Below are positions 9,218 to 27,989 of a stretch of DNA of 30,909 nt, one piece after another; the stretch's first letter is position 1; each line of letters begins with the position of its first letter. The notes under the pieces are model-generated. The model had not been told where the DNA came from, searched no databases, and worked only from the letters and a program-made list of their open reading frames with translations. Origin of the DNA: a virus (lineage: Duplodnaviria; Caudoviricetes); the IMG/VR virus record IMGVR_UViG_3300020042_005969, positions 1 through 30,909 of that record. One strand, 5' to 3'. A program made the position numbers and the translations under genes.

Positions 9218-9582
9218 CAATGAGAGACCTTGACCCCGAATTTTACGAATTGGGGTTCACGATGCGTGTGCTCAACTGCTTTCGGGCTGAAGCAATTTTG
9301 TCCATCAGGCAACTGCTTACTTACTCAGAGCAAGAGCTGAACAAGATTCCAAACTTTGGGCGTAAGTCAGGGCGGGAAGTGGTTGAAGCGTTGGAGTCAC
9401 GGGGATTCAAGCTGCGCGACCACAACACACCGCCACCATTAAGACCGTTGGAGCAAGCCAAGCACCATCTTGATATGGCTGCGCTAGCGTTTGCCCGAGC
9501 AAATGAAGAGATGCACAAAGCATTTGGCGAGATTACCCGCGCTGAAAACGCATACTACAAACGGAGCAAGAATGAACATTGA
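9214..9582 (+). CDS. Stand-alone RNA polymerase alpha-subunit C-terminal domain homologue with helical tail
   Basis: ELGFTMRVLNCFRAEAILSIRQLLTYSEQELNKIPNFGRKSGREVVEALESRGFKL aligns with RpoA CTD (LELTVRSANCLKAEAI...[27 protein letters not shown]). Confidence 0.9.
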   Translation: MTMRDLDPEFYELGFTMRVLNCFRAEAILSIRQLLTYSEQELNKIPNFGRKSGREVVEALESRGFKLRDHNTPPPLRPLEQAKHHLDMAALAFARANEEMHKAFGEITRAENAYYKRSKNEH

Positions 9583-9880
9583 AGAACTGAGAATCCCCCG
9601 TGCCCGTAACACTGACCCTGTTACGTCCCATGCTGCGGCTGACGCCGTTGACTTCGCTGGCGCACACTACAAGGCCATCTACGAAGCGCTGCTCCTAGCG
9701 GGGCCGAGTGGCAAAGACCGCATTGCAGACTGGGCAAACCTTGACCGGTCTCAAGTAGCGCGTAGGTTGGCAGAGATGCGCAGGATGGGCATCGTGGTGC
9801 TGACCGGAGAACTGGTGATGTCCCGCTCGAACAGGTCTGAGCGGGAGTGGCAAGCAGTAGAGAAGAAGGAGCAAGCATGA
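9572..9880 (+). CDS. Winged-HTH protein with ARxTDPxTSHxAA N-terminal motif
   Basis: RARNTDPVTSHAAA, HTH ...QVARRLAEMRRMGIV, wing SNRSEREW. Confidence 0.8.
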   Translation: MNIEELRIPRARNTDPVTSHAAADAVDFAGAHYKAIYEALLLAGPSGKDRIADWANLDRSQVARRLAEMRRMGIVVLTGELVMSRSNRSEREWQAVEKKEQA

Positions 9881-10089
9881 AAGAAGATATGACCCAACAA
9901 GAAATCAAGGTATCAAACGTATGCGGGGTGTGGAACACGCATCCGCATTGGTCTGCACTGCATTGGGGTAGCGGCGTAGACGCAGGGGTGAAGCGTCTGG
10001 AACTCATTGCAGAAGACTGGACGTTCACATTCAAAACCGTGGAGCAGAAGTTTTCTGCGTTGAATTTACACAAGAGGTATGGGCCATGA
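9877..10089 (+). CDS. Hypothetical protein (70 aa)
   Basis: AAGGAG SD, ATGA coupling. Confidence 0.7.
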   Translation: MKEDMTQQEIKVSNVCGVWNTHPHWSALHWGSGVDAGVKRLELIAEDWTFTFKTVEQKFSALNLHKRYGP

Positions 10090-10937: not shown

Positions 10938-11097
10938 AGAAGACGACGACATTCAAGACTACAAGCGCCCGTGGGTAGGGCTGACAGATGAGGAGATTGA
11001 GGGTTGTGTACACCATGTAGATGATGAGGCTGTATTCGGGCTTCCTGATTTTGCCCGTGCCATTGAGCAGTTGTTGAAGGAGAAGAACAATGAATAA
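10930..11097 (+). CDS. Hypothetical protein (55 aa, RPWVGLT type)
   Basis: AGGAG SD; ...FARAIEQLLKEKN. Confidence 0.8.
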   Translation: MIEEDDDIQDYKRPWVGLTDEEIEGCVHHVDDEAVFGLPDFARAIEQLLKEKNNE

Positions 11098-11302
11098 AGA
11101 CGAAGCATTGCAGATGTGCCTTGAGTACATTGAGACAGACGCGCATGAACGTAAGCATGTGCGCCATGCCATCAAAGCAGCATTGGCACAGCCAGCGCAG
11201 GAGCTTGTGGCGAGGGAATGGAACTTCTGCGAGAGGTGCGGTAAGCGCACAAAGGACATGACCACGATTCACACATGCACACCACCACAGGAGGGCAAAT
11301 GA
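11090..11302 (+). CDS. Hypothetical protein with CERCG..HTC zinc module (70 aa)
   Basis: AAGGAG SD; C-terminus paralogous to gene 10425. Confidence 0.8.
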   Translation: MNKDEALQMCLEYIETDAHERKHVRHAIKAALAQPAQELVAREWNFCERCGKRTKDMTTIHTCTPPQEGK

Positions 11303-11472
11303 TTGAAGAAGACGATGACATCCAAGACTACAAGCGCCCGTGGGTAGGACTGACGCAGCAGGAGGTTGACGACTACTGGGACTGGGAAGATTGGCAGACA
11401 GGGGCTGGCCGCTCAACCATATTGGAAATGGTTAGGGACATTGAATCTAAGTTAAGGGGTAAGAACATATGA
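11299..11472 (+). CDS. Hypothetical protein (57 aa, RPWVGLT type)
   Basis: AGGAGG SD; N-terminus paralogous to gene 10930. Confidence 0.8.
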   Translation: MIEEDDDIQDYKRPWVGLTQQEVDDYWDWEDWQTGAGRSTILEMVRDIESKLRGKNI

Positions 11473-12605
11473 TGGCTATAGCTAACTCCATTGCGGATTC
11501 AGTGCGTCAGTTTTTGGACAAACTGTTTAAACGGTTTCGCGTTCCAGTCTCTGCCGTAGTCTTGGAAGTCCCACAAGCAGAACCACCGCGCAAACAGCGC
11601 AAGTACAACAAGGACAAAACAAAAACATTTTCTGATTTGCTGGACAACTTGGAGTACACGTTTAACTGTGTAAAGCTACCAACAATGAAAGAGTCATGGC
11701 TTGAAAGAGACTCTATTATTGGGTTGAAGAAGATTGGGATTCATGTGCCAAACCCGTGGAATGCAAGAATGAATCATAAAGATTCAAAGGTTGATATAGC
11801 AAAACCACTTCCTGCCATTATGTGCATTTCTACCGCTACGGCAAATACCATCAATACCAAAAAATACTTATATCCAAAGATAATATTTGCGGTTAAGCTA
11901 AAAAAACTTCCGTGGCATGTGGCAAAAAAATCAGGAACACCCTATCAATTTGGCATGGCATGTGATTTAGATGATAAACTTTTTTGGATTTGCATGTACA
12001 TGACTGTAAATAAATCAACAGGGGAGATACAGTTTTGTGATGAATTAAGGGTCAAGGCACATAAAATTAACCGACAAAAAACTTTTTACAGTAAGACATG
12101 GAGTGGCCCATCGTATCTTGAAGATGTTTTGAGGACAGTAGAAGAAAATAAAAATCTTGCCAAGAATTTATTTGTTGCTATGCATGACTGGTGGTCAGAA
12201 CGAGATGCGCGTTGGAATGTTGTTGTTAGAAAGAATGGCGACCGAGTTACTTTCGGGGTTGATAACAGCCAGACCCCGTATTACTTTAAAGACAGAGACA
12301 AGAGCATCAAGACGGCAACAGGTCAGACCAAGAAGATTGTCCACTACGTCAAAGAACACGACAGAAAAATTAACGACAAGACAACTGTGGTGAAAGAACA
12401 TATACGGGGGCTTCAGGACTTTAATTGGAATGGCTACAACTGTCTAGTTGTGTCACCCAAACTCCAAGCACAAACATCAGCAACCTTTACAATTCCTGCC
12501 GGTGATGATGACTCGGAACCAAGCAATGTGGTCTACCTTAGTAAGGTTGGCAAACTGTTGGCAGACTTAGAAGAAAAGCGCATACCAAAGAAGAGGTCTG
12601 CATGA
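11469..12605 (+). CDS. AT-rich hypothetical protein (378 aa) with HxVxxHxR...VxxHxRG motif
   Basis: Long ORF; IVHYVKEHDR...VVKEHIRG. Confidence 0.88.
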   Translation: MMAIANSIADSVRQFLDKLFKRFRVPVSAVVLEVPQAEPPRKQRKYNKDKTKTFSDLLDNLEYTFNCVKLPTMKESWLERDSIIGLKKIGIHVPNPWNARMNHKDSKVDIAKPLPAIMCISTATANTINTKKYLYPKIIFAVKLKKLPWHVAKKSGTPYQFGMACDLDDKLFWICMYMTVNKSTGEIQFCDELRVKAHKINRQKTFYSKTWSGPSYLEDVLRTVEENKNLAKNLFVAMHDWWSERDARWNVVVRKNGDRVTFGVDNSQTPYYFKDRDKSIKTATGQTKKIVHYVKEHDRKINDKTTVVKEHIRGLQDFNWNGYNCLVVSPKLQAQTSATFTIPAGDDDSEPSNVVYLSKVGKLLADLEEKRIPKKRSA

Positions 12606-12682
12606 CCAAATGGGACAATTTTATAAATTGACACCATCAAGAAATGGGTGGTTCCTCACGGAGAATACACAGGAGAACGCAA

Positions 12683-12889
12683 ATGATTGATGACAAAGAG
12701 CAGATAGACAGGATGAAGGAAGCTTTAGCCAAGGCCATGAAGCGTGTTCCTGAGTCTGTGGCTAACGGTAGCTACCAACGGGCTGTTCAGTACAAGTCTG
12801 ACTACCTCAAGGCACAGAAGATTCTCAACAAGAAGACACCCAAAATCAACGAACTAGGAAGTGCTTTAAACACTATGAAACATGACTGA
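12683..12889 (+). CDS. Hypothetical protein (68 aa)
   Basis: AGGAG SD before ATG 12683. Confidence 0.75.
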   Translation: MIDDKEQIDRMKEALAKAMKRVPESVANGSYQRAVQYKSDYLKAQKILNKKTPKINELGSALNTMKHD

Positions 12890-13088
12890 ACAAATTATTG
12901 ACTACGCACTTCCCTGCATGAAAGCAGAGCAAGCCCTGAAGGATGCACACAACGCATTCATTGAGAACAAGCTGGACTTGGCTCTGACCCGCACGATGGA
13001 TGCAATCATTGACGTACGACTGATGTATGCCGCTCTGCGTCATGCAAAAGAGACCTCTACTGTTTACACGGAGAACAAGAATGCTTGA
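12882..13088 (+). CDS. Hypothetical protein (68 aa, IDYALPCMKAEQALK)
   Basis: Overlap-coupled in the operon. Confidence 0.75.
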   Translation: MTEQIIDYALPCMKAEQALKDAHNAFIENKLDLALTRTMDAIIDVRLMYAALRHAKETSTVYTENKNA

Positions 13089-13332
13089 ACCTAGATACCG
13101 GCAGATGCTCATGGACTCAGTTGACTCCAAGAGGATTGAAGAGAAGGATTATGTTTTGGAGAACCCGAAGCTTGAGGCGACTATTAAGCTCATCAAAGCT
13201 GAGTGCCCTGAGAAGTTTCACTCTGACCACTCTATTGAGGAGAGAACTTTTTATGATGAGCCAGCCGCTCCTCGGGCTCCTGTTCGCAACTCAGGGTTTA
13301 TTCGTCCTATGCCTAAGCGAAATCGCTATTGA
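13081..13332 (+). CDS. Hypothetical protein (83 aa, ...ECPEKFH...)
   Basis: GGAG SD before ATG 13081. Confidence 0.75.
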   Translation: MLEPRYRQMLMDSVDSKRIEEKDYVLENPKLEATIKLIKAECPEKFHSDHSIEERTFYDEPAAPRAPVRNSGFIRPMPKRNRY

Positions 13333-13610
13333 TGAGGTACAGCAAAATCAAACCAAACCTGCGGGAGATTCTGCATGGTTATGAAGATGGTTTAACCATC
13401 AACGATTTGGTTGTGAAGACGAGTCTTGATGGTAGTAACTTGAGGCGTGTTCTTGCAGACATGGATGATGTTTACATCGACAGGTGGTCTGTATCTCAGT
13501 ATCAAAGGCCAGCCCAAGCCGTGTATTGCATAGTGAAGATACCTGAGGATTGCCCCAAACCAGCAAAGGAACCAAATGAAAAGAGAGCTTATAACCGAAG
13601 AGTCCGTTGA
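13332..13610 (+). CDS. Putative winged-HTH protein (DGLT...YIDRW type)
   Basis: LREILHGYEDGLTINDL...NLRRVLADMDDVYIDRW...AVYCIV. Confidence 0.72.
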   Translation: MRYSKIKPNLREILHGYEDGLTINDLVVKTSLDGSNLRRVLADMDDVYIDRWSVSQYQRPAQAVYCIVKIPEDCPKPAKEPNEKRAYNRRVR

Positions 13611-13857
13611 GGCTCTTGTAAAAGAGATGGATGAGGACGACAGGAACTACCTCTCCATATACACACACATGATGATGATGGCTTTTGCAAATAGAGGCAA
13701 CGTCAAAGTTGCGATTATTTTTGACACTGATGATTCATCAGGTGTTGCAGCTATCAACATGACCAGCGAGGAAGTTGTAAGTGCTCTTGAGAATGCTCAC
13801 AAGCATCTTTATGAAGTGATTACTAGAGACATGCCCCCCAAGGGAATGCTCAACTAA
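13576..13857 (+). CDS. Hypothetical protein (93 aa)
   Basis: AAGGA SD. Confidence 0.78.
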   Translation: MKRELITEESVEALVKEMDEDDRNYLSIYTHMMMMAFANRGNVKVAIIFDTDDSSGVAAINMTSEEVVSALENAHKHLYEVITRDMPPKGMLN

Positions 13858-14057
13858 TGAATGAACACGACGAAAACCTCAGAGACCTAGCGGCTATGTT
13901 CGCTATGTGCGGTTTGGTGATGCGTAACGGCCCTGATGCTAGTACTCTCTCTAAAGCGTTTGAAATTGCGGATGAGTTCATGGCTGAACGTTTAAACGTT
14001 GGTCATGGCCTAGTGTCTATCAAACCCGCCAAGGCAAAGCGTGACGTACAGAAATGA
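13857..14057 (+). CDS. Hypothetical protein (LRDxxAMxAMxG...ADxxMAER type)
   Basis: LRDLAAMFAMCGL...AFEIADEFMAER; TAATG coupling. Confidence 0.8.
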   Translation: MNEHDENLRDLAAMFAMCGLVMRNGPDASTLSKAFEIADEFMAERLNVGHGLVSIKPAKAKRDVQK

Positions 14058-14063: not shown

Positions 14064-14342
14064 ATGCATAGCAAAAACCTAACCAAACGGGACAGAGAGC
14101 ATTTATTGCAGGTGAAGTCTTTGTCTTGCGGGGTATGCGGTGCTAGTGCGCCAAGTGATGCACATCACATTGAACAAGGACTGCATTTCATATGCATACC
14201 GTTATGCAAGGACTGCCATCAGGGCTCACACAATGGAATACATGGACGCAGAGCAATGTGGAGTGTGCTAAAGAAGACGGAGCTTTCCGTCCTCAATGAC
14301 ACAATCAGTAGATTGCTTACGGTCGGGCCATCTTCTGCATAA
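14064..14342 (+). CDS. HNH-type / Ref-like zinc nuclease
   Basis: CGVCG...DAHHI...CIPLCKDCHQG..NGIH. Confidence 0.8.
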   Translation: MHSKNLTKRDREHLLQVKSLSCGVCGASAPSDAHHIEQGLHFICIPLCKDCHQGSHNGIHGRRAMWSVLKKTELSVLNDTISRLLTVGPSSA

Positions 14343-17300
14343 CCTGAATTTCACTGGTCAACGCATTTTGCGTCTTGTTAATTTCGTCTAGCATCATTCG
14401 CTTCTCCTCTGCGGGCATCGGGGTAGAACGAATCATTGCAGCCTGAGCACTGAGCTTCTGCATCTGCTTGTCCACTGAGGATACGTAGCCCCTCATCCCG
14501 TACATCGATATGTTCTTCTCAATGTACCCCTGAAGTTCAGGACTTCCCTGTTTTGAAAGCAGATTGACTGTACGTACAACTTGGTCAACCGAATTTTTTA
14601 GGTCGTAGAAATCACTTACCTGACCCCTTGCTTCAGGGTCAAGCAGAAATCGTCTTATCACAGCAGTCTGTTCAAAGCGTTGAGATGCCTTGGGGTTATC
14701 ACTACCTGCGCTAAATACAGAATCCATTACATTCGCTAGGTACATGCCCATTGTTCCCGTGTAGCCCTTGTACACATGGTCAATCATTATGGGAGACATG
14801 CCAGTCTGCTTACCAAGGAACTCTGCAATCTTCGTGGTCTTCTCGTTGATTTGAAACTCAGGGGCAATGTTTCCCATTGCTTCGCCCACAATGGGACGCT
14901 GTGTAAACACCGAGTAGTTGTACTGAGCTTCCAGAAGTGGAGCAATAGCTTGGGGCACAGGGTTAAACGCAAAGGTGGACAGCAGGGCTCTCTGCATGGA
15001 GTCGCCCAACTGTTTTGATGTGTCTGTTCCGTAGGAGTAACGGTAGATACGTTCTGGGATAGTTTTAAACAGAACCCCGACCTCAAACGGGATTGGCAGC
15101 TTGATGCCAAGACTTGGTATGAGCCAGTTGTTGTCCTTGGTCTCTTGTTCCTGTTTCTCGTAGTCAGGGTCTCCCATGATTGCTGCGGCGTACATAGTAC
15201 TCAGGGCCATCATAGTTGCCCCACGAATCAACATAGCCTTCTGAACCTGCTTCTCGTAGGCGGTCGAGTTCTTGTCATAGAAGGGTCGGATACCTGCACG
15301 GAAGAACACATCCAGACCTTGGACACGGGCGTTCAAGAACGGGATGGCAGCGGCTGCAATACGCACTATGGCAGAGCGTCCCTTGCGGTTGAAGTTCAGC
15401 ACCTCTACCGCCCGACGTATAGCCTCTGCCTCGTTGCCAGTTTCCTTCAGGGTGGCTTCGTAGACAGCCATACGCGTTGCAGCATCGGATGCCTCTGTTC
15501 CACGCTCAAGGAATCCCCAGACATTTGCAAATGGTTTAAACAGTTGCTCTGACTTGGTCTGAGTTCCGGTCTTTTTACGGAGGTCTGCGGCGAAAGCTTC
15601 TGCTCCGGCTTCCACGTTACGGGAGTATTCGTATCCACCGATTGCACCTGAATTTAGCAGTGCTTGATAGACCGGAGAGCGGTTCATGATTGCAGCGCCA
15701 AAGTTCTTGACGGTGGAGATGACGGGCTTGATGTTTGCACCGCTGGTGACGTAAGCGGACAAGGAGTCACGCATCATGTTGGCAAGCATGAAGCCGGGGT
15801 CTTTGGTGACCAAGCTTCGGAGCAAGTCTGCTGGCGCTGAAAGAATGCTGAGGAACGGCAACTCAGGCAGGTTTAAACTGCTGACAGCCTCAATGAAGAG
15901 TTTGTCTGCACATTGATAGGACACCTTCTTGCCATTCTCCAGAATGGTGATTGTGTCTGGCGCAGAGGCGACCGCAGGCAACTTCGTAACCATGCCCAGC
16001 ATCATTCCATTCTTCACAGCCTTCTGGGCTGCAAGATTCTTCATGCTGGATTGGATGGCAGCTTGAGTGTTGCGAACGATGGTCTCAAGGTAGTCCTCAA
16101 TAGGAGCATCGCCCTTGCCTTTTAGGGTCTTGGGAGGTTTGACACCGCTGATGCTTTGGTAGACGCTTGGGCCAAGCGTTGTGCGCCCATCCATCTGACG
16201 GTACAGGGGGATGTAGTCGGAGTACTTCATAAACTCAGCGCCTGCCGCTGGGGTAATCACACCAGCATCAACTTGCAACTTGACCAGCGCGTTGTTGTAC
16301 TTAATCCAGTCCTGCTGGACGGTAACAAACTCAGGGTACTTTTGGCTTAGGGTCAGGGCATCCTTGATTTCTGCGGGGGTCAGCAACTCAAAGCGACCCT
16401 CACGGTACAAACGGGTTCCCCGTTTAGCTGCACTCCAAATCTGGTACAGCCGGTAGATGTCAGGGTCACCGCGACTGGCTAAAGGAGAAAGGATTTCTAG
16501 AACGCCTTTGACTGTGCCGTTTAAATTGTCAACGGTGACATAGCCGTTCTTCAGTACTGGAGCACCACCCATGCGGTCGCCAACGCCCAATGCAGACGCT
16601 GTAACACCAGCAGCCATGTCAGAGTTTAAGGAGGCCCAGTGTGCGCTTTGGTCTGCAAGTAGGTCTATGCCACCCATCTGCTGGGCAACCATCTTGTCGT
16701 AATCGTTTAAACGGTTATAACGGTCAAAGAAATTTTGACGGAAATAGCTCCATGCCTCTGGTGCTAGAGCATTTATGACGCGCTCCGCAAAGCCTTTGGT
16801 CTCCCGTGGGGGAGTGACCCTGTTCATGGTCGCCAAGATGGCTGCACCATTGGGCATGTTGCTCAGGTCGTTCTTGACGTTAGTGCGTAGGCTCTTACGA
16901 ATATCAGGGTTGTTGATATCGTATGTACCTTCATTGCCGGTGGCAGACTTGAGTTGGTTAGAGTCATAGACTGCTAGGTTCTTCTCGTTGCCCTGCTTGA
17001 TGTAGAAGCTATCAAACCCAGCAGCGCGAATTGCATTCTGCACTCGGTCAGATTCCAGTCTAGCAACATTGTTAGCAAGGCTATCTGTGGTTACATCCTT
17101 CAGGCCAAGTTCTTTGATGTGGTCTTGATTCTCGTAATCAAAAGGCCGTTCAGCCCTCACAAACACCGGCATGATGTTTTTACCGGAAGCAGGGAATAGT
17201 TTGTCGGCTGCGGTCTTTAAAAAATCGGAAGCCTCTCCCGTTGGGTTAGACGATTTGATTTCTTTAATGAGACCGGAAGCTTCTTTGGAAAAGCCGTAGG

Positions 17301-20300
17301 AACTCTTAACGTCTGCAATAGCTTGAGCCCTAGACTTAGCCAGCTCCTGTGGGGAGTAGCTTGATAGCTGACGCTCAAATGCCTTGTACCCTGCCGCTGT
17401 TTCTGCATACTCATCTGCGAACTGAGGACTGTCCGTCAGGAAGATAGCCCCGGCTTGCTTAGGTTTAAACGTAGTAATGTCTTGGGCTGTCCCGTGGTAC
17501 ATGACCCTCGGGTTGCCGTCTGCATCAACTATCTTGCTGTCGCCAAAGAACCGTTTAAACTCAGGTGTATCTGGTGCTGTGCGAAGACTGGCTCTGGTAA
17601 CCGGTGCTTCTGGCAGGCTTGGAAGTTTGTTTACAAGCGGGCTCTTTTCTGAAAGGCTGCCCAGCTTCTGCTTGGCATTCAAGGTTCCGATGTACTGAAG
17701 CATGGGCGCATCAACCGCCTCATCGCCCGTCAATGTAAACGCTACAGGCGGCAAGGAGGCCTTCTGGTCAGCAAAGCCGCGTTCTTTCAGGGCGACATTC
17801 TTTACCTCGGGGCGGAAGTTCTGCCATGCATTCTGTGCCCGTGTCTCGTTAGTCAACGCCCAACGTGCCAATGGGTCAGTGGTGGTTGCCATGTGGTTCT
17901 TCCACGCAGCAAACTCACCCTTAGGGCCAAACTCTGTATCGCTCAGGTTGTGGGCAAAGTAATCGTGTACAGCCCGCAACAGGTCGTTGTACAACATTGT
18001 TTTACCGTTGATGTCCTTCATACCGGAATCACCAAGTAATGGGTGACCGGTGAAGTCCACACCCTCAGGCCCGAATGTGTTGGCATCCGTCTTGAGAACC
18101 TTGAAGGTGTTGTTTAGGCTGACATCCTTGCGCATCTCTGCGCTGTTCTTGTAGATGTCAATGTAATTCTTGTTCTCGTCAAATTTGGGGTCAGTCAACT
18201 CTACCTTGATTGGTAAAGCCTCGTACTGACGTTTGACTTCCTTCGCAAGAGCCTCGTATGCATTACGCACAATAGGCTTCTTGAGGTCGTTCTTGGGCAG
18301 GGCCTGAAACACATCCTTGAGGACGGTTTGCTCTTGTACCTGCGCTTTGGTTAAAGCTTTCTGCTCAAACGCCTTGATTGGATGGCGAGTGAGGTACTCC
18401 CCGATTATTCTCGGGGTTGCTTTGTCTGAGTCCTGCTTGGGACGAACGATGCCACTGATGTCAGCGTATCCGAGTCTTGCCCCATATCCTCGTCCGTAGA
18501 CTGCAAGACGTTGTGTTTGGAATTGAAGTCTGCCGTCATCTGCTCCATAGCTTTCATAAATTCCCTCGAGCTTGCTGAGGAATTCCTTGTATCCTGCTGT
18601 GTCATTCTCTTCTCCTTGTACGTGATATGCGGTTAGGTCTGTTGCTGAAACAGAGAAACCTTTAAGTCCTGCGTTGTTGACGATATCAACAATGTCCTGC
18701 TCCGTCAATTCTTTTTGAAGCTTGACCGTGTAGACAGGGGTTGCGTATGTTCCATCGCCAAAGTCGTGACCAACCTTGTATGCGGTCTTAGTCCTGACGT
18801 GGATTTGCTCTTGGTTGAAGTTGTCAGCAAACTTGGCAAGTGCGGCTAGGACAGCGGCATTGTCTGATTCCTTGAACCGTACTTGTGCCACGATGGCTGG
18901 CTCACGGTCAGACTCGTACACACCCTTCACACCACTGACAGTAACTCTAGCGTTTGTCCCGCTCAGAAGGTGCTTCAGTGTGCTGGCTGCAACATTCTGC
19001 AACACAGCATAAGCCTCTGCATCACCGTTTAAAGCACGAGTGTGCAATAGGTCAAGGCCCGGAATGCTCTTTGTCACAGCAGACAGGTTGACGATTGCCT
19101 TATCGACTAGCTCTTTTCCTTTACGCAGTCGGACTCCACCTTCTGGTGTAAACGACATGTCAAAGCTACCGCCACCGTCTTCTACGAACTCACCCTCACC
19201 GGAGCTAAACCAGTCTGGGCGGTCTGCTCTCTCACCAAGAGCTTCAATGTTTCTGCGTGTCTCATCAAAGGATTGCTCACCTGTGCGGAACTTAGTCCAC
19301 TCGGCACGGATGGGCTTCTTAATTTGATTCTTGATGTTCTCGGGGAACATGCCACGGACAGCTTCCCATGTGATGGATTGCATCTCACGGGGTTTCAGTC
19401 CTACCTGTCTAGCAGCTTCACGGTACGCATCTGCAATCAAGCCGTAGGTTCCGCCAACACCAATCTTGGTGTTCTTGCCAATGCCACCAAAGTTATCCAG
19501 CACCTCGGGGTCTGAGCCAGCCAATGCTTCATACAGGCCAGCAGCCACTGCATGGGTGTCAATGGTGACATGACCTATCGGGCTGTTTGGTGAAACGATG
19601 TTGTTGTAGAAGGAACGAATCTTGTGCTCTTCTCCAAGCTGTTGGCTGATGTTTTCACGGCTTGGGTCGCGGAAGATGCTGACGGTCTTCTCAATCGGGC
19701 TGTAAGTTGACCACATCATGGTGGCTGTCTTGGCTGCACCGGTTTCTTTGTCAACGTTCTTGTTCATCACAAAGCCACCGAACCCACCCTCAGGAGTAAC
19801 GATACGGTACTTGCGGTCATGGAACGCTTCGTCGTAAGCGCGTACAAACGCAGCAGCGTCCTTGACGCTCATGTCTTTGAGCTTGACTTGCCTACGGCTC
19901 ATTTCTGAGATTCGTTTGTCAAAGAAAATCTGCCGCTTCTCACGGTCTTTCCTGTCCTCTGCCTCGTTGATGTAGCTACGTGCGTAGTCCATCATCTGAG
20001 GAGTCCAAGTGGCATCACCGTTGTTGGTCAAGATTTCAATCGCCCGTTCAGCCATTGAGACGTTCTGGAACCAATCTTTCTGCGGAGACATGGCAGCCAA
20101 GATGCCTGAGACCTGTTCCTTGCTCATGTCATACCGAGCGCCCAACTCAATGGCTATGCGGTTTGCCCCGTCATACCAAAGCTTGCTGCGCTGACGCACA
20201 TCCTCAGGCACACGGTTGTACAAGTGCAGGAGGTTGTTGACAATGTTGTCTTTGAACACCTTGATGACATCTTCATCCTTGGTGTTCGCTGGGATAAAAC

Positions 20301-23300
20301 CATACGACTTGATGGTCTCAATCATGTTCTTCTCTAGCTCAGGGTTCTGAGCCATCGATTCACGTACTGCCGCCTCATCGATAGACAGCATGTCTGTCAG
20401 CGGGTCATACAGGCGGTTCTTAGCCTGAGGGTTCTGTGTGGAGATTTCAGACTCATCCTTGACCGCCTTGCGGACTAGGCTCTTCTTAGTCTCTTCAGTT
20501 TTCTCAGCAGCCTTGGTAGCCTTCAACTCACCACGCTCCACCTTACCGAACACGTCGTCGGCTGTCTCGTAGCCTGCACCTGTAAACGCAGAGCGCAGAT
20601 TGCGGAAGAACTTACGCATGGCATTTAGAAGCTGTGCAAACAATCCCTTGGGAGCACCGTTTACATCAAAGTCTGCAAACGCGTCAGCAATAGCTTCCTC
20701 ACGTACAGCGGCGCTGTCGTTGGCGTACAGGTTCTGGTACGCATCAAAGCGAGACTGCTGCCCCTTCTGAAGAGGCTGTCCGTCGATGTTGCGCTGCTTC
20801 AGGTACTTGTTAATCCATACTTTGTCCGCTTGGTTCTCCAGAACCTTCCACTGACCGGGCGTGAAGAAACCCAAGTCCTTGAGGCCGTGGATGGACTCAT
20901 GGCGCAGGACACGAACGGGGTTGTTTGCATCTAAAGCAATCTTGATGGTGCTGGCTACGTAGGAGCCCTCGTCCTTCATGCCCTCTTCAATCTTGAGAGC
21001 AACATCCCCAAGACCAAACTTACGCAGCATGGGCAGAAGCTGACCCTGTAGCTCTTCCGCTTTGGGGTTTACTTTGGGCTCTTCCTTTACCTCTGGCTCT
21101 TTCTTTACCTCTGGCTTTTCCGCCAAGAAAGGCTTAGGAGGATTCTTCCGGCGCTCCTGCTCCTTCTTTAAACGATTGGCAAAGCCCGGTGCTTTTGTCT
21201 GGCCTGCAAGTTCATTTAAACGTTTAGCAGGCAGGTTCTCAAGGGCATGCCTTTCAGCTTCCTCTCGTGTGTCAAACGACTTCTGACTTACTCCCGGTTC
21301 TTTGACAGTGAAGACCTTCTTGTTACCAACTCTGCCGGTGGGGTTGACCACAACAGACTGCTGGAGCATGTCTCTTTGTTCGTTTAAACGTTTAATGTTT
21401 TGGGCTGCGTTAGCAACTACCGAGTCTTGACGGGCGGATGCTTGTTGGTACTGCGGTGTGTTAAACAGGCCGTTAGACTCCATTGTGCTCAAGGCGCGCT
21501 GTCCTGCCGCAATGCTGGAGTTCTCTTTGGCGATAGCCTTCTCAATCTGGGCAACTGCTGGGGTAGCAGACTTGCCTAGGCTTGCTGCCTTTGCAGCAGC
21601 GTCTTCCTCGTTCTCTGTGAAGTACAGACGCTTGTCACCACGCATGACGTTGAACCCAGTCTTCTCAGCGGGCGCAGCGCCTTCCTCAATGTTGAACTCT
21701 GCCTGTGGGCCCTTGGCTTGCAGGGTTACATTACCATCGCTTGTAAGGTCAATGTCACCCTTGCGATTGGCATCTTGAAAAAGAATCTTGATGTCATCGT
21801 CGCTTTTAAGCTTGGCGGTCTTCTTAATAAGGCTCTGTGCCTCATCAACAGAGACAGGCTTTAGCTTTGGCTGTTGACCTTCTTTGAGATTTGCCTGCTC
21901 TTGGGCAATGGCCTCATTACGCTTGGTTACCAAGCCCTGTAGGGCGCTCACAGCAGATGTGTACTGCTCAGGGTTGTAGATGGTAGCGTTGGTCATCTCC
22001 GGGAGAATCTGCACCTCTTCAAACCTTGGCAGTTCTGCCAATGCTTTAAATGCAGAATGGAGTTGAGGCTGCGACATGCTCGCAATCTCGTTCTCGCCGG
22101 TAGCTCGTTGAAGGAAGTATTTAAACCCTGTTGTGGTGGTGTCAATGTTCTTCTGCTTGGCAACCTTGATAACATCCTCAGGGACATACTTCATCCCACC
22201 GACGTAGCCGGTCTTTGCTGCAATAAGACTGTTTAAATCAGCTTTCTCTGCGTCAGGAAGCTGGTTAGGCATTGCATTGCGGATGTCTTCAATGGAGTAG
22301 CTGTCAATCTCAGGCTTGCCCTGTTTCTTGCGGACAGAGTCCACATACTGGGCAATCTTGGGAGAGCGGCTTATTAGTTCATCCTTAGAGAATCTGCCGA
22401 CGGGGTCGTCCAAAGCATCACCAACCGTCATGGTTGGCTTCTTAGCCTGCTCTACTGCAACACCTTCTATATCAGCACCTTCCACCACCGCAGGCTCTAC
22501 CTTTGCAGGCTCTGGAAGGTTGGGTAAAACTTTGTTGTACTCGGTAGCCAACTGCTCCAACTCTGGAGTCATGGCCTTCACTTGCTCTTCAATCTGAGCA
22601 TTGTGTAAACGGTCTGCCGTCTCTGTTGCAGAGTTCTTCTGGATGTCGCGCAACTGAGCAAGTAGCTCGTTCTTACGTCCTTCTGCCGCTTGGTACTGGG
22701 TAGCTATGTTCTTTGCGTAATCAGGAGAAGATGTGTCAGGAGGTGGCGGCTGCTCCGCCTGACGGGCAACAGCTTCAGCTTGCTCCTTCTGAGCAACCGC
22801 AGCCTTGGCTCCGCTCTTATCGCCCATGCGTCCCACAATACCCAACGGGCCAAGCAAAGCCACTTGATATGCTGTTTCGCCATATTCCTTCATAGCCTCT
22901 GGGCCGGTCAAAGGAAGACCCGCCTGATACCGCTCAAGAACTTGCTGGGGAATCTCTGTGGGTATTTCACCAGCAATACCGGTCAGTGTGCCCTTGGCAA
23001 TTGTTGCAGAAATACGTTCTTTGGCAAGCCTTTCAATGGCTTCAGAACTACCTTTAGCCAAAACTTCCTCAGGTATTCCTATCAGCTTGCCAAAAATCTT
23101 ACTACCCAGCAGGATGCGGTTTGATACCACATCAAACGCACCTTGAGGGATTGCGGTTGTAGCGGCAGATTTGGTATTGATGTCAATAGGCTTACCAGCA
23201 GCTACTTGCTCTTGAGCTTGGCGCTCAACGTTACCGCCTAGTGATTGGACATAAGATGGCGCAAAAATACCAGCAATACCCCCTGCAATCCCTCCCGCTA

Positions 23301-23778
23301 TCCTGCCACGACCACCGGCAACGGAACCTAATTTTTGACCAGTTTTAGACCCCGCCAATGCACTTGCATACGAAGCGGCAAGATTAGGGGACTGCTCTGC
23401 AATAGCCAAGGGAATTTGCTTGACTGTCTCGCCAGCAGCAGACAAGAGACCATCTTTTTTGTACGTATCAAGAACTTTTTGTAAGCCAACTTGTTCGGCG
23501 TACTTCTTGTTTATTTCTTTACTCCGCTCCAATGCAGCTTTTGCCGCCTCATCGGCATCTCCAGTTGCAACTCCATAAACTGTCTTTGCAGCAGAGCCAA
23601 CTTGTGCGGTTCCTTTTTTGAGGGCCGCAAGGATTCCCTCCTTAGGAGGAGGTGGAGGATTTGCTGCTTCTGGCCTTAAAGAATATAGAGTGGCAGATAG
23701 CTGACTCTCAGAAGCACCTTCAGGAGCCTCTAAGTCGTAAATATTCCCATCAGGCGCTTGCAGTGAGTAGATAGGCAT
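14317..23778 (-). CDS. Giant polyvalent internal virion/ejection protein (3153 aa)
   Basis: Last gene of the virion module. HESIH...EEAIADAF zincin (~20520-21050); WY/SPQ/KIRSFYNN/TIDTH/QSITW domain (~19340-20230); NLSA/GVY..E/NQE domain (~18700-19100); RAVHDYFAH domain (~17750-18330); ART-like YHGT/IFLTDS/AVY (~16890-17580); LPD38-like PFLNARVQG/LPIPFEVG/PLLE C-terminus. Confidence 0.92.
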   Translation of the reverse strand: MPIYSLQAPDGNIYDLEAPEGASESQLSATLYSLRPEAANPPPPPKEGILAALKKGTAQVGSAAKTVYGVATGDADEAAKAALERSKEINKKYAEQVGLQKVLDTYKKDGLLSAAGETVKQIPLAIAEQSPNLAASYASALAGSKTGQKLGSVAGGRGRIAGGIAGGIAGIFAPSYVQSLGGNVERQAQEQVAAGKPIDINTKSAATTAIPQGAFDVVSNRILLGSKIFGKLIGIPEEVLAKGSSEAIERLAKERISATIAKGTLTGIAGEIPTEIPQQVLERYQAGLPLTGPEAMKEYGETAYQVALLGPLGIVGRMGDKSGAKAAVAQKEQAEAVARQAEQPPPPDTSSPDYAKNIATQYQAAEGRKNELLAQLRDIQKNSATETADRLHNAQIEEQVKAMTPELEQLATEYNKVLPNLPEPAKVEPAVVEGADIEGVAVEQAKKPTMTVGDALDDPVGRFSKDELISRSPKIAQYVDSVRKKQGKPEIDSYSIEDIRNAMPNQLPDAEKADLNSLIAAKTGYVGGMKYVPEDVIKVAKQKNIDTTTTGFKYFLQRATGENEIASMSQPQLHSAFKALAELPRFEEVQILPEMTNATIYNPEQYTSAVSALQGLVTKRNEAIAQEQANLKEGQQPKLKPVSVDEAQSLIKKTAKLKSDDDIKILFQDANRKGDIDLTSDGNVTLQAKGPQAEFNIEEGAAPAEKTGFNVMRGDKRLYFTENEEDAAAKAASLGKSATPAVAQIEKAIAKENSSIAAGQRALSTMESNGLFNTPQYQQASARQDSVVANAAQNIKRLNEQRDMLQQSVVVNPTGRVGNKKVFTVKEPGVSQKSFDTREEAERHALENLPAKRLNELAGQTKAPGFANRLKKEQERRKNPPKPFLAEKPEVKKEPEVKEEPKVNPKAEELQGQLLPMLRKFGLGDVALKIEEGMKDEGSYVASTIKIALDANNPVRVLRHESIHGLKDLGFFTPGQWKVLENQADKVWINKYLKQRNIDGQPLQKGQQSRFDAYQNLYANDSAAVREEAIADAFADFDVNGAPKGLFAQLLNAMRKFFRNLRSAFTGAGYETADDVFGKVERGELKATKAAEKTEETKKSLVRKAVKDESEISTQNPQAKNRLYDPLTDMLSIDEAAVRESMAQNPELEKNMIETIKSYGFIPANTKDEDVIKVFKDNIVNNLLHLYNRVPEDVRQRSKLWYDGANRIAIELGARYDMSKEQVSGILAAMSPQKDWFQNVSMAERAIEILTNNGDATWTPQMMDYARSYINEAEDRKDREKRQIFFDKRISEMSRRQVKLKDMSVKDAAAFVRAYDEAFHDRKYRIVTPEGGFGGFVMNKNVDKETGAAKTATMMWSTYSPIEKTVSIFRDPSRENISQQLGEEHKIRSFYNNIVSPNSPIGHVTIDTHAVAAGLYEALAGSDPEVLDNFGGIGKNTKIGVGGTYGLIADAYREAARQVGLKPREMQSITWEAVRGMFPENIKNQIKKPIRAEWTKFRTGEQSFDETRRNIEALGERADRPDWFSSGEGEFVEDGGGSFDMSFTPEGGVRLRKGKELVDKAIVNLSAVTKSIPGLDLLHTRALNGDAEAYAVLQNVAASTLKHLLSGTNARVTVSGVKGVYESDREPAIVAQVRFKESDNAAVLAALAKFADNFNQEQIHVRTKTAYKVGHDFGDGTYATPVYTVKLQKELTEQDIVDIVNNAGLKGFSVSATDLTAYHVQGEENDTAGYKEFLSKLEGIYESYGADDGRLQFQTQRLAVYGRGYGARLGYADISGIVRPKQDSDKATPRIIGEYLTRHPIKAFEQKALTKAQVQEQTVLKDVFQALPKNDLKKPIVRNAYEALAKEVKRQYEALPIKVELTDPKFDENKNYIDIYKNSAEMRKDVSLNNTFKVLKTDANTFGPEGVDFTGHPLLGDSGMKDINGKTMLYNDLLRAVHDYFAHNLSDTEFGPKGEFAAWKNHMATTTDPLARWALTNETRAQNAWQNFRPEVKNVALKERGFADQKASLPPVAFTLTGDEAVDAPMLQYIGTLNAKQKLGSLSEKSPLVNKLPSLPEAPVTRASLRTAPDTPEFKRFFGDSKIVDADGNPRVMYHGTAQDITTFKPKQAGAIFLTDSPQFADEYAETAAGYKAFERQLSSYSPQELAKSRAQAIADVKSSYGFSKEASGLIKEIKSSNPTGEASDFLKTAADKLFPASGKNIMPVFVRAERPFDYENQDHIKELGLKDVTTDSLANNVARLESDRVQNAIRAAGFDSFYIKQGNEKNLAVYDSNQLKSATGNEGTYDINNPDIRKSLRTNVKNDLSNMPNGAAILATMNRVTPPRETKGFAERVINALAPEAWSYFRQNFFDRYNRLNDYDKMVAQQMGGIDLLADQSAHWASLNSDMAAGVTASALGVGDRMGGAPVLKNGYVTVDNLNGTVKGVLEILSPLASRGDPDIYRLYQIWSAAKRGTRLYREGRFELLTPAEIKDALTLSQKYPEFVTVQQDWIKYNNALVKLQVDAGVITPAAGAEFMKYSDYIPLYRQMDGRTTLGPSVYQSISGVKPPKTLKGKGDAPIEDYLETIVRNTQAAIQSSMKNLAAQKAVKNGMMLGMVTKLPAVASAPDTITILENGKKVSYQCADKLFIEAVSSLNLPELPFLSILSAPADLLRSLVTKDPGFMLANMMRDSLSAYVTSGANIKPVISTVKNFGAAIMNRSPVYQALLNSGAIGGYEYSRNVEAGAEAFAADLRKKTGTQTKSEQLFKPFANVWGFLERGTEASDAATRMAVYEATLKETGNEAEAIRRAVEVLNFNRKGRSAIVRIAAAAIPFLNARVQGLDVFFRAGIRPFYDKNSTAYEKQVQKAMLIRGATMMALSTMYAAAIMGDPDYEKQEQETKDNNWLIPSLGIKLPIPFEVGVLFKTIPERIYRYSYGTDTSKQLGDSMQRALLSTFAFNPVPQAIAPLLEAQYNYSVFTQRPIVGEAMGNIAPEFQINEKTTKIAEFLGKQTGMSPIMIDHVYKGYTGTMGMYLANVMDSVFSAGSDNPKASQRFEQTAVIRRFLLDPEARGQVSDFYDLKNSVDQVVRTVNLLSKQGSPELQGYIEKNISMYGMRGYVSSVDKQMQKLSAQAAMIRSTPMPAEEKRMMLDEINKTQNALTSEIQVMQKMARP

Positions 23779-23790: not shown

Positions 23791-26436
23791 CTATTGAGGT
23801 CTGACATTCACAACTTTTGCATTTGGAAGTACAGAAGATGCTCCGCCTCCCTGACCGGCGAACTCTGGGTATGTTGCATTAATTGCTTGCAATAGGTTAT
23901 TAGCTTCTTTTGGATTTATTAGTTGAAGTATTTTATGTTTTGCAATAGCGTCTAAATAATCTTTTGCTCTTGTTGCTTGAGTGGCAGCATTTCTTGGTTC
24001 GGCGGAAACACCTGCGGCATCAACTCTTGCACCTGCCTGTACGCCCGCTACATTTTCTCGGGTTGCGCCTTGCAACTCAGCTATGTACCTTTTTACATCA
24101 GCATAGTTTTTGGTTTCAAAATAAAGTTTCATGGCTGAGGCGTAATCAATACCCTTCTCCTGCATGAGTCTGTTAATTATGCGCTCTGCTTCTGGAGTGT
24201 TAATGGCTTGAGTAAGTGCTGCTGTGCGCTCTTCTTTCTCACGCTCACGTTTAGCTGCAAGTGTGGCAACACCGGCAGTGCCTAGGTTCTCCATTGCATA
24301 CTGAGACTTGCCAGCAAGCAGATTGAATCCAAGGTTCAGCCAGTCATCGCTAGTAAATCCTTTGGTGGCAGCAGACTTAGGAGTCTCCTCTTTTGCCATC
24401 TTGATAATTTCTTGGGGAGAGCTTGGCGGTGCTGGGTATCTGCTTTGCAAACTGGCTATTTCACGGGCTATGTTATCTTCTTGTGGGGCTGGCTCCGCCC
24501 TCTCCGTAATTGGATACCTACGCTGTAGATTGTCTCTTTCACGGTCTATGTCATATGGCACATCCACTGGAACAGCTTGCTCCGCATTGCCTGTTGACAG
24601 ACCATCTCCAATTACATTAACTGCATTATTAAGTCTTGTTGCATCAATAATAGCATTGGCGGGTTTAATAACTTGATTGAGCTTGTTAGCTTTTTGGGCT
24701 GCATCAATAGCATCAAGACCTCTTTCAGCACCTGTTGCTAATTTGGTCTCTTCTGCAATCTTTGCAGCATTGACCGCAGCTTGCTCATCAGCTTTCAGGT
24801 TCCGAAGTGCTTGTGCATTTCTGGCTGCTGCAAGTTTTTGATTCATCTCAACAGCGTCAGCACCAAGAGGATATGTTCTACCTGCATCGTCAACCTTGCT
24901 GACAGCAGGTGCAGAATTTTTAGCAGCACGAGCAGCCGCAACCTGTTGATTCATCTTTACTGCTTCTGGGCTAAGAGGGAACCGTGTCCCCTGAGAAGTA
25001 AGACCACGCTTTGCTTTTTCTGCATCAGACAGAGCCTCTAGTCCTACTGTAGGCTTAGGCGGCACTGGGACTGGAGTGGCAAGTCCACGACGGATTTTTT
25101 CTTCATCGGACAAGGCATCAACACCACCCCGTGCGGTAGATACAGGGGGAGAGAGACGTACATTGGCAACTTTGGCGGCAGCAGCAGCGGCGGCTTCATC
25201 TGCTTGAGCAATTTTGGCAAGCCTAGCGGCATCCGCTGCTTTGTCAGCAGCAGACATTGCCTTGGGAATTCTGAAGGGGCCCGTAAATCCTGCTGTTGCA
25301 TTCAGAGTGTTAGAAGCGTTCCGCTGAAACTCTTGGCTCAGTCCAGCATTACTAGCCGCTCTTTCAAAAAACCCACGGGTATCTTCTACAGGCAATCCAT
25401 TGGGGCCAATAAACTGTTCTCTAGGAGCAATCCGTTCGCCAACACTTCCCATGCCTTCATATATTCTTTTGAGTTGGCCTAACACGCTGCGGTCAACTTC
25501 TCCTGTCGTTCCACTTTCAGGTACTTGAGCACCTCCGCTTGTTCTAGCCGGTAGCGGGTATCTTGCTGAAGCCTGACTTTGCGGGGCAGCTTGAGGAGTT
25601 ACTTGTGCTGGAGCTTGTGGAAGCTCTCCCGCATTGGCAGAAGATATGATTGAGTTACCACCACGAGGTGCTGCTGCAACTTGACCAGTGATTGGCCTGA
25701 AACTAGCCATGCGCTTGGCAACATCATCGCCATATTCTAAAGTTGTTGGGTAGTCTGGATTCTTTGGGTCAGCTACTGCAATGCCTTTTCTGGCTTTGTC
25801 TAAACCACCGGGGCCACCATAATAATATGCACCAGCAAGTCTAGGGTCTCCGCCAGCCAGTTTATAACCTTGACTGGCATAACGAATTCCAGCCCGCATG
25901 TTGTCTAGTGCGTTGTCAATCTTCATACCGGGAGATGCAACAGATTTAAACGTTTCCGGCAGTATCTGCATCTGACCAACTGCACCACGATTGGAAGTGG
26001 TTGTGTTTGTCCCGCTTCCAGTTTCCTTGCTATAGATGGCTTTTAGAAACGCTCGACGGATAGGGTCTGTTACGCCTTCCATATCCAGTGCAGTGTCAAA
26101 GCTGGGTTCAGCCTTTACTTCTTTGCCATCTTTAAACGCAACAATCCCACCGGTTGCCATGCCACGCATATTGGGTGCAGGCAAGGCTCCAATGCCTTGC
26201 TGCTCTGGAAGAACGCTTTGCTGAGGAACGTCCATTTGAGCAATAGCTGTATCAGCTACCTTGGGCTGCTGCTGCGCCTGCTGTTGACCTCCTGTGCGGA
26301 TTTCTTTCCTGCGATTGGATTCGCTGATAGCCAATGAAACTGTGTACGGGTCATCCCTGTGCATCTGAGCAAATTGCTTCAGCGCTTGGTCTGGCATCTT
26401 TGACAGACGGGAGGCGATTTGATTTACGTTCAGCAT
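23791..26436 (-). CDS. Internal virion protein with lytic transglycosylase (SLT) domain (881 aa)
   Basis: AIYSKETG (catalytic Glu), SNRGAVGQMQILPET, NMRAGIRY, AGAYYYGG. Confidence 0.88.
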   Translation of the reverse strand: MLNVNQIASRLSKMPDQALKQFAQMHRDDPYTVSLAISESNRRKEIRTGGQQQAQQQPKVADTAIAQMDVPQQSVLPEQQGIGALPAPNMRGMATGGIVAFKDGKEVKAEPSFDTALDMEGVTDPIRRAFLKAIYSKETGSGTNTTTSNRGAVGQMQILPETFKSVASPGMKIDNALDNMRAGIRYASQGYKLAGGDPRLAGAYYYGGPGGLDKARKGIAVADPKNPDYPTTLEYGDDVAKRMASFRPITGQVAAAPRGGNSIISSANAGELPQAPAQVTPQAAPQSQASARYPLPARTSGGAQVPESGTTGEVDRSVLGQLKRIYEGMGSVGERIAPREQFIGPNGLPVEDTRGFFERAASNAGLSQEFQRNASNTLNATAGFTGPFRIPKAMSAADKAADAARLAKIAQADEAAAAAAAKVANVRLSPPVSTARGGVDALSDEEKIRRGLATPVPVPPKPTVGLEALSDAEKAKRGLTSQGTRFPLSPEAVKMNQQVAAARAAKNSAPAVSKVDDAGRTYPLGADAVEMNQKLAAARNAQALRNLKADEQAAVNAAKIAEETKLATGAERGLDAIDAAQKANKLNQVIKPANAIIDATRLNNAVNVIGDGLSTGNAEQAVPVDVPYDIDRERDNLQRRYPITERAEPAPQEDNIAREIASLQSRYPAPPSSPQEIIKMAKEETPKSAATKGFTSDDWLNLGFNLLAGKSQYAMENLGTAGVATLAAKREREKEERTAALTQAINTPEAERIINRLMQEKGIDYASAMKLYFETKNYADVKRYIAELQGATRENVAGVQAGARVDAAGVSAEPRNAATQATRAKDYLDAIAKHKILQLINPKEANNLLQAINATYPEFAGQGGGASSVLPNAKVVNVRPQ

Positions 26437-26444: not shown

Positions 26445-27980
26445 TTACATTTTACTTAGAGCCAACTCAACCAATCCACCGGTTTTTTTGGTTGTAGTGG
26501 TTCCGCCAAACAGACCCTGAGACAGGGCCCCAAGTCCAGCAACTTGACTCAATGTAGAAGGGGGAGCCTGATAAACAGACGTTCCTAAATTGGAAGTTGG
26601 AGTCCCACGGATGATGTCCGACATGAAATTAAGCTGCTTGTACGGATTGTTCTGTTGGTTCAAGAAATCTTGATACTGCTGGCTCAGAACGTTTTGGGTT
26701 TGCTGTTGTTGCTGACCACCAAATGCATTCTGAATGCCCAAGGCATTGGCCTGTTGCCCGTAGATGTTCTGTCCCACAGCGCCAAGGTTGCTCATACCCT
26801 GCATACCGGCTTGAAGGCCCTGTAGACCAAGACCCGCACCATACTGGCGCGACTGCTCGTTAAGCTGGTTGGCTGACTGCCCGTACTGAGCGCCTAAGCT
26901 TGCCGCTTGTAGGTTCTGGCCTGCGTTGAACTGCCCCGCTTGGTTCTGAGCGGCTTGATTAGCCAGCGCGGTCTGCTGATTTAGCTGGCCTTGTTGCAGC
27001 CCAAACTGGCTCTGCGTCTGCTGGTTAGCCAGAGCAGCTTGTAAAGCCTGTTGTGCGTTTAAACCTTGCGTTTGTAGTTGTGCAGCTTGATTCTGCACAT
27101 TGGCCTGCTGTTCCGCAGACAAGTTAGCCAGCGAGGTTTGTAGCCCTGTCTGTGCGCCAAGCTGCTGAACACCAAGTGCTGCGCTTAGGTTTTGTCCGCC
27201 CGTGGTGAGCCCTGCCTGCTGGTTTGCCTGTTGTGCTGCCAAGCGGGCCTGCTGTTCTGCGTTGAACTGCTGCTGCGCTTGCTGGTACGCAGCTTGGGAG
27301 CCCTGCGCTTGGATGTCGCCCATCTGCTGACTTAGATTGCGCTCACGTTCCGCCCGCATGATGGCATCACGACCCCCGCCAAAAGCTCCGGCTTGCGCCG
27401 CCTGTGCCTGCTGTTGCGTACCTTGAATACCCGACTGGCGTTGTGCTTCGCGCTTTTGGATGTCCACCACGCTCTGCATGTACGGAGACATGTAAGCATC
27501 TGCTGCACCGGGCTGGGCAAAGCTTTGTGTGTTTACACGTTCAGCAGGCCCCATCTGAAAGTTTTGCAGACCGGGGTTGTACCCAGTTTGCGCCGTGTTC
27601 ATCATTGGCGCGTTGTATTGCCCTGCACTAACCATCGGGGCGCTGTTTAAATTTGTATTTTGCGCAGTCTGTGCGCCGTAACCAATCCCCTGTGGGTTAA
27701 ATTGATTGCCGTAGTTGCTTGGGTTGTATCCGGTGTTGGCAGCCCTGTTTGAATAGTCAAGCAGTCCTGATGCCGCATCAAGGGATGCCCCGGACGGGCC
27801 CAACTGTCCAGCGCCAATAAACGACTGTTGCTGTAATGGATTGAACTGAGCAATCCGTTCTTGACCGTATGTTTGATACGGAGAACTGGTGAGTGCTTCA
27901 GCTTTACCTAAAAGGGTCTGAGCATAGGGAGCTACTTCAGGTGCAAAACCTACCGAGTTGATGTATGTTGCGTCTGCCAT
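26445..27980 (-). CDS. Gln/Ala/Gly-rich DNA ejection (pilot-like) protein (511 aa)
   Basis: YMSPYMQSVVD, AGAFGGGR, repeated ANQ motifs; position among ejection genes. Confidence 0.8.
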   Translation of the reverse strand: MADATYINSVGFAPEVAPYAQTLLGKAEALTSSPYQTYGQERIAQFNPLQQQSFIGAGQLGPSGASLDAASGLLDYSNRAANTGYNPSNYGNQFNPQGIGYGAQTAQNTNLNSAPMVSAGQYNAPMMNTAQTGYNPGLQNFQMGPAERVNTQSFAQPGAADAYMSPYMQSVVDIQKREAQRQSGIQGTQQQAQAAQAGAFGGGRDAIMRAERERNLSQQMGDIQAQGSQAAYQQAQQQFNAEQQARLAAQQANQQAGLTTGGQNLSAALGVQQLGAQTGLQTSLANLSAEQQANVQNQAAQLQTQGLNAQQALQAALANQQTQSQFGLQQGQLNQQTALANQAAQNQAGQFNAGQNLQAASLGAQYGQSANQLNEQSRQYGAGLGLQGLQAGMQGMSNLGAVGQNIYGQQANALGIQNAFGGQQQQQTQNVLSQQYQDFLNQQNNPYKQLNFMSDIIRGTPTSNLGTSVYQAPPSTLSQVAGLGALSQGLFGGTTTTKKTGGLVELALSKM

Positions 27981-27989
27981 TTCAATTCC

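Follow-up and report, generated by a model that had tools for sequence, protein, structure and literature searches.

The stretch of DNA analysed here, referred to as the window, is a linear, 50%-complete IMG/VR contig of 30,909 nucleotides from a member of the Caudoviricetes, in which no capsid or portal gene was identified. On the minus strand an open reading frame at 14317..23778 encodes a giant protein of 3,153 aa with the Pfam domains DUF7178, ART-PolyVal and LPD38. In the order of translation the chain contains a zincin-type motif read from the sequence (H960-E-x-x-H964 with E1028 downstream; 20599..21051, limits approximate), the DUF7178 domain (19348..20253; Pfam E 1.3e-29; phrog_3842) and, just downstream of it, the module that is the subject of this study. 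This is followed by a conserved unnamed domain, the ART-PolyVal ADP-ribosyltransferase-like domain (16924..17571, start approximate; PF18760, E 4e-19) and the LPD38 domain (14665..15171; PF18857, E 1e-35), all on the minus strand. As several disparate domains are joined in one chain, typical polyvalent ones included (LPD38, ART-PolyVal, HExxH), the protein belongs to the phage polyvalent proteins as defined by Iyer et al. 2017 (PMC5512222).

The neighbouring gene of 881 aa (23791..26436, minus strand) bears a lytic transglycosylase (SLT) domain (PF01464, E 2.6e-6) and gives PHROG matches to lytic tail proteins, a setting that fits a block of ejection genes; the two genes beyond it gave no family match in Pfam or PHROG. 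At 26445-30509 on the minus strand, a Gln/Gly/Ala-rich protein of 511 aa and a Pro/Gly-rich protein of 839 aa show short internal repeats and match no family; they are candidates for further ejected proteins. Elsewhere on the contig, a phage gene encodes an RNA polymerase alpha-subunit C-terminal domain (9208-9582, plus strand; PF03118, E 8e-16) and an amidoligase (PF12224) adjoins a class-II glutamine amidotransferase-like gene (5031-7697, plus strand). The GC content falls from ~55% in positions 1-10000 to 43-45% around 11-14 kb (11000-14000), where numerous small genes on the plus strand run towards the end of the giant gene.

The HExxH motif of the giant protein occurs in 61 of 82 module homologues compared to 5.5% of shuffled sequences. 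The region around it is without a Pfam match, and from its sequence the domain is a candidate processing peptidase. The DUF7178 domain adjoins the module in only 21 of the 82 homologues. It contains a T-I-D-T-H stretch which we take to resemble the catalytic motif of helix-hairpin-helix DNA glycosylases. DUF7178 also occurs together with the unnamed domain, and without the SAM-lyase unit, in E3 gp205 (one protein) and in Rizal gp101/gp102 (adjacent genes).

For the region between DUF7178 and the unnamed domain, a SAM-lyase-like domain had been proposed at 18700-19110. We find that this interval comprises unit 1 and the first part of unit 2, whereas the conserved module continues to ~18454. Unit 1 (aa ~1555-1664; 18787..19116, minus strand) is delimited as a predicted SAM-lyase-fold domain by AlphaFold2, structure search, hhalign and conservation. 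A linker (aa 1665-1677; 18748..18786, minus strand) with D1675-G1676, of which D is kept in 102 and G in 101 of 104 homologues, leads to unit 2 (aa ~1678-1775; 18454..18747, minus strand), which is ferredoxin-like in the AlphaFold2 two-unit model.

Unit 1 has the predicted order beta-alpha-alpha-beta-beta-alpha-beta and carries S1566, G1619, Y1621, E1626, Q1656 and E1657. The motif stretches are IVNLSA, beginning at aa 1562 of the reading frame (19095-19078), VKGVYESDREPAIVAQV, beginning at aa 1617 (18930-18880), and LAKFADNFNQEQIHV, beginning at aa 1647 (18840-18796), each on the minus strand. By in-register alignment and conservation, G1619-x-Y1621 and E1626 (18901..18924, minus strand) correspond to G56, Y58 and E69 of Svi3-3 and to G55, Y57 and E68 of T3. 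The pair Q1656-E1657 (18808..18813, minus strand), likewise conserved, is equivalent to Q104/E105 of Svi3-3 and Q94/D95 of T3. The order SA/GxY/E/Q(D/E), which the original prediction had given for the T3 family, agrees with the T3 gp0.3 record (S16-A17, G55-x-Y57, E68, Q94-D95). The loop between Tyr and Glu is 6 residues shorter in unit 1 than in T3 and Svi3-3, and the residue matching Ser50 of Svi3-3 by spacing is variable in the family.

Conservation was assessed in 104 non-redundant homologues with <60% identity. Retained are G1619 in 103, Y/F1621 in 101, E1626 in 103, S/A1628 in 103 and Q1656 in all 104 sequences; the position after Q1656 is E in 59, Q in 14 and D in 4. Within the family, where identity falls as low as ~35%, no residues vary less than E1626 and Q1656; H1660, near the C-terminal edge of unit 1, is nearly invariant as well. 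As to the Glu of the motif, E1626 is of the catalytic type (103/104), while a Glu directly after the Tyr is variable (10/77). Y1621-E1657, the match of the Y58-E105 hydrogen bond in Svi3-3, ranks within the 40 strongest covarying pairs. The signal is weak, and the alignment of 104 sequences is too shallow for a contact map. The loose pattern SA/GxY/E/Q(D/E) occurs once in the real protein and is present in 37 of 500 shuffles, so that the motif by itself is only a lead and not significant. Its significance derives from the match to PF23780, the profile-profile E-values, the structure search and the conservation.

PF23780 matched unit 1 with E 0.0025-0.0056 and 17-18 bits, below its gathering threshold of 28 bits. 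By Pfam's own rule unit 1 is therefore not a member of PF23780 and represents a distant subfamily. The same profile matched 7 of 28 and 20 of 48 family members (best member E 2e-4), and each other Pfam family was matched by at most one member of the module family. When unit 1 was compared by hhalign with an 11-sequence alignment of the T3 family, E-values of 2.3e-4 to 2.7e-4 resulted with G, Y, E and Q in register; shallower T3-family alignments gave only E 0.05-0.6. In a control with windows along the protein, unit 1 scored E 1.7e-4 and the next best window 0.02, with a profile obtained for 24 of 26 windows and profile depths that differ. Of 164 proteins searched with the T3-family HMM, 86 had a reported stretch; in 45 of these the best one lay in unit 1, compared to 3.6 expected by length, the sequences not being independent. 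With the module or its alignments as queries, HMMER recovered no lyase from the PDB sequences; matches to flavodoxin, myosin and kinesin, at E 0.016 or worse, were set aside as fortuitous. Unit 1 shares 15% sequence identity with Svi3-3 and 6-7% with the SAM-AMP lyase.

AlphaFold2 predicts a ferredoxin-like fold for unit 1 alone (pLDDT 91) and two units of the beta-alpha-beta-beta-alpha-beta type for the whole module (pLDDT 88, pTM 0.83). The likeness to SAM-lyase structures anticipated for aa 1555-1700 was borne out: among 48,161 PDB chains, unit 1 ranks the SAM-AMP lyase 9GAB first (Z 9.2, rmsd 2.9, 98 residues aligned) and Svi3-3 6ZM9 second (Z 8.5, rmsd 2.9, 95 aligned). T3 7OCK lies outside the top 50 for unit 1 alone; for the two-unit model, 6ZM9, 9GAB and 7OCK take ranks 2, 5 and 6 (Z 6.3-6.8). 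CutA and MgtC follow behind the lyases for unit 1 at Z ~8.0, and the margin of the lyases over CutA is ~0.4-1.1 Z. After re-ranking of the top 1,000 chains from Foldseek, the first four are lyases (Z 9.4-9.8); in Foldseek's own order DUF3240 and GlnK stand just above the lyases. Since the lyases come out on top with PII-like folds close by, the structural comparison argues well for the PII-like class and to a modest degree for the lyases within it.

With the two-unit model, the Foldseek PDB search gave generic tandem ferredoxin folds and no lyase among the matches listed, and efflux-pump porter domains (Z 6.4-7.0) were read as a common arrangement. A search of the Atlas with unit 1 returned nothing, and no paper naming the protein of entries 9LQD and 9LQE was found. 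Taken together, predicted fold, in-register profile match and the near-invariant G, Y, E and Q uphold the proposed SAM-lyase-like domain. On fold, profile and residue conservation we consider the homology of unit 1 to SAM lyases highly probable, and it is probable, with less assurance, that SAM-type chemistry has been preserved.

Unit 2 lacks the G/Y/E/Q set and has conserved residues of its own (Y1718, R1757, Y1761, G1762). It does not match the T3-family profile (E 0.28), and as unit 1 and unit 2 show no sequence similarity (E 0.15), a duplication is not supported. Both units are found in 164 of the 165 homologues of at least 1,500 aa; the exception starts inside the module, its N-terminus being cut. 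The 40 strongest covarying pairs also include H1660-Y1718, again a weak signal. In Svi3-3, two subunits of the trimer contribute to the active site, as described by Guo et al. 2021 (PMC7877911). Together, the fixed co-occurrence of the two units, their confidently predicted joint model and the weak covariation suggest that unit 2 likely stands in cis for the neighbouring subunit of the known lyases. For a giant protein present in few copies, a partner supplied in cis would be a gain.

The region aa 1547-1786 has 76 homologues with 37-97% identity in proteins of 1,992-3,976 aa. At E up to 0.001, a module profile matched at least 261 clusters (50% identity), and 150 of the representative matches were listed; the counts that follow rest on 217 matches. 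From these, 165 are at least 1,500 aa long and 164 of the 165 cover the whole module. A further 34 short matches begin or end inside the module or extend into neighbouring domains and look like fragments. Among the matches listed, small free-standing relatives amount to only three proteins, on contigs of ~1 kb. The module matched none of 50,697 annotated phage records, hence no cultured carrier was found there. In 14 proteins that were scanned, the domains around the module vary widely (InPase, zeta-toxin, MuF-C, glucosaminidase), as would be expected of a mobile module.

Distant two-unit structures occur in other large phage proteins (TM ~0.5, 10-16% identity), several of which are annotated with InPase, RelA/SpoT or LPD domains. 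In BFVD, the two-unit model retrieved stand-alone proteins of 216-320 aa from Bodo saltans virus, Fadolivirus, Yasminevirus and Klosneuvirus, with TM by query of ~0.4 and E 1e-5 to 1e-2.

The unnamed domain behind the module (aa ~1830-2011; 17746..18291, minus strand) is phrog_3170-like, has no Pfam family and contains H1938-D1939-x3-H1943, E1955, H1962 and E1978. Judged by these residues it is likely a metal-binding, metal-dependent enzyme. Of 82 non-redundant giant proteins, 69 have this HD-x3-H domain starting at most 150 aa behind the module and 12 are without it. Conversely, it occurs without the module in Rhodococcus phage E3 gp205 (annotated as structural protein) and in a Bxz1-like mycobacteriophage gp102. 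Among 8 phage proteins examined from the HD-x3-H group, 7 have no detectable module, one of these being Rizal gp101, which is itself without the domain. Podoviridae ctQRb9 (UOF81042, 4858-5700) has a candidate distant two-unit module ahead of its HD-x3-H domain, a weak match (E 0.02-0.04) with Asn at the position of the catalytic Glu. Relatives of this candidate module are found in MW202640 and phage zth2-2. The HD-x3-H domain is also present in giant proteins of the cultured cyanophages MinM2 and Mel-JY33.

Polyvalent proteins have been predicted to be injected and then cut apart by zincin domains, as stated by Iyer et al. 2017 (PMC5512222). Proteomics of phi24B virions finds gp47, an LPD38 protein of 2,811 aa, which its authors propose as an ejection protein, according to the preprint (bioRxiv 10.64898/2026.04.10.717836). 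By analogy to gp47 in virions, and from the LPD38/ART-PolyVal polyvalent class together with the neighbouring lytic transglycosylase gene, the 3,153-aa protein is likely a packaged internal virion or ejection protein.

We lean, by a modest degree, towards a reading in which the module (aa ~1555-1775) cleaves SAM, the virion-packed protein being injected with the DNA and blunting SAM-dependent defences before phage gene expression. By comparison with Svi3-3 and T3, SAM would be bound at its amino-acid end by E1626 and Q1656, with Y1621 stacking on the sulfonium, and its cyclisation would yield methylthioadenosine and homoserine lactone. Unit 2 is predicted to pack against unit 1 and likely does so in place of a neighbouring subunit. 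With unit 2 in this role, a single chain would be functional once it has unfolded and passed down the tail, and the HExxH domain could free the module by cleavage. A lower SAM concentration near the entering DNA would then weaken type I restriction or BREX.

The cellular SAM pool is taken as 0.18 mM. Svi3-3 turns over 9.5 times per second, as reported by Guo et al. 2021 (PMC7877911). At this rate, with this pool size and resynthesis ignored, an assumed 3-12 copies would turn the pool over in 16-63 min in a 1-fL cell and in 1-6 min in a cell of 0.05-0.1 fL. In comparison, T3 SAMase reaches ~10,000 copies and also inhibits MetK, as described in a preprint (bioRxiv 10.1101/2023.02.27.530186). With slow turnover by few copies, bulk SAM depletion is doubtful where the host cell is large; instead, the enzyme may act locally, in small hosts, on a scarce substrate (SAM-AMP), through cassette chemistry or at a late stage. 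More tentatively, the module might be a single-chain SAM lyase, threadable through the tail, in which unit 2 replaces the neighbour subunits, and might form together with the HD-x3-H domain a mobile cassette for SAM or a SAM signal that acts in the first seconds of infection.

Among other explanations, the module could bind or use SAM in a three-part cassette with the HD-x3-H domain, for sensing or for passing on an aminocarboxypropyl group or product, with no drain on the pool. The position of the HD-x3-H domain at most 150 aa away in 69/82 proteins is far tighter than that of DUF7178 (21), ART or LPD38, few injected copies suit a local reaction better, and ctQRb9 offers its candidate module, with Asn for Glu and a weak match, ahead of an HD-x3-H domain. 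We nevertheless regard this as unlikely, since the module keeps the full lyase residue set, 12/82 module-bearing proteins do without the HD-x3-H domain, and 7/8 examined phage proteins of the HD-x3-H group (with Rizal gp101, lacking the domain, among them) have no detectable module.

Still less probable is a SAM-AMP lyase, an injected anti-CRISPR against the signal of type III (CorA-linked) systems like the candidate AcrIIIB4. The C. botulinum SAM-AMP lyase is the top structural match of unit 1, and a scarce signal would suit few enzyme copies. According to Chi et al. 2025 (PMC12255297), this enzyme shares E71 and Q108 with the SAM lyases and differs in the T-loop, and only E and Q are structurally conserved in it, whereas the module keeps the GxY of SAM lyases. 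Moreover, the Z-scores of both enzyme types are within ~1, and the identity of 6-7% compares to 15% for Svi3-3.

Equally improbable is an active SAM lyase that acts late, during bulk synthesis of the giant protein, and leaves progeny DNA unmethylated, instead of acting at injection. Far more copies would be present late than per virion, but fusion into a protein of 3,000 aa would be needless for such a role, and among the matches listed only fragments, no free-standing subfamily member, were found. A generic ferredoxin/PII-like structural domain or dead relic without SAM chemistry, to which CutA/PII close behind the lyases (Z ~8) and the sub-threshold PF23780 score would point, is the least probable explanation, given E1626 and Q1656 as the most invariant residues down to ~35% identity and a T3-family profile match specific to the unit 1 window. 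A PF23780 scan of the contig gave no candidate for a further lyase; as it also missed the module's own domain, it is too insensitive to exclude a second one.

In the known cases, SAM lyases are early-expressed counter-defence enzymes, so that entering DNA is exposed until the lyase is made. If the favoured reading of injection and SAM cleavage is true, a virion-borne lyase would close this gap before expression, and the repertoire of polyvalent proteins gains a predicted enzyme class. The two-unit module offers a compact construct of 220 residues suited to direct testing with published assays. It also raises a quantitative question: could a handful of injected enzymes be effective via local depletion, in very small hosts, or through a scarce SAM-derived signal? 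In the largely open-access literature searched, no publication was found that places a SAM lyase within a virion or polyvalent protein. The terms 'lyase', 'SAMase', 'AdoMet' and 'S-adenosyl' are absent from the main text of Iyer et al. 2017 (PMC5512222).

Similar to unit 1, Svi3-3 (6ZM9, 6ZNB) and T3 gp0.3 (7OCK, 8BB1; PF23780) are phage-encoded, with the ferredoxin-like core predicted for unit 1 and with G-x-Y, Glu and Gln-acidic residues in register. In Svi3-3, G56, E69 and Q104 are the only strictly conserved residues and Y58, E105 and S71 lie at the site, according to Guo et al. 2021 (PMC7877911). The preprint on T3 SAMase describes E68Q/Q94A as inactive and the enzyme as a dimer when free and a monomer on MetK (bioRxiv 10.1101/2023.02.27.530186). 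In contrast to T3 gp0.3, an early protein of 152 aa, the domain is here located inside a protein of 3,153 aa. The module differs from T3 and Svi3-3 in its shorter loop, in an additional helix that follows strand 1 and in the second ferredoxin-like unit, and no match to the N-terminal MetK-binding tail of T3 aligned in it. Svi3-3, for its part, may come from a larger protein.

The SAM-AMP lyase of CorA-linked type III CRISPR (9GAB, 9GAD), the best structural match of unit 1, has Glu and Gln in common with it, E71 and Q108 corresponding to E1626 and Q1656 when mapped through Svi3-3. That enzyme is trimeric, stand-alone and SAM-AMP-specific, whereas the module is a domain of a giant protein. The PII/GlnB-like superfamily (GlnK, CutA, SbtB) shares the fold class (Z ~7.5-8.5), with ~80-84 residues aligned compared to 95-99 for the lyases and no sequence-profile support seen. 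With the polyvalent proteins described in PMC5512222 and with phi24B gp47, the host protein shares its giant multidomain build, LPD38, ART-PolyVal and HExxH, and probably a virion-type gene block. In comparison to these systems the enzyme kind itself is known, and what sets the present case apart are the two-unit form, the size of the family and the linked HD-x3-H domain.
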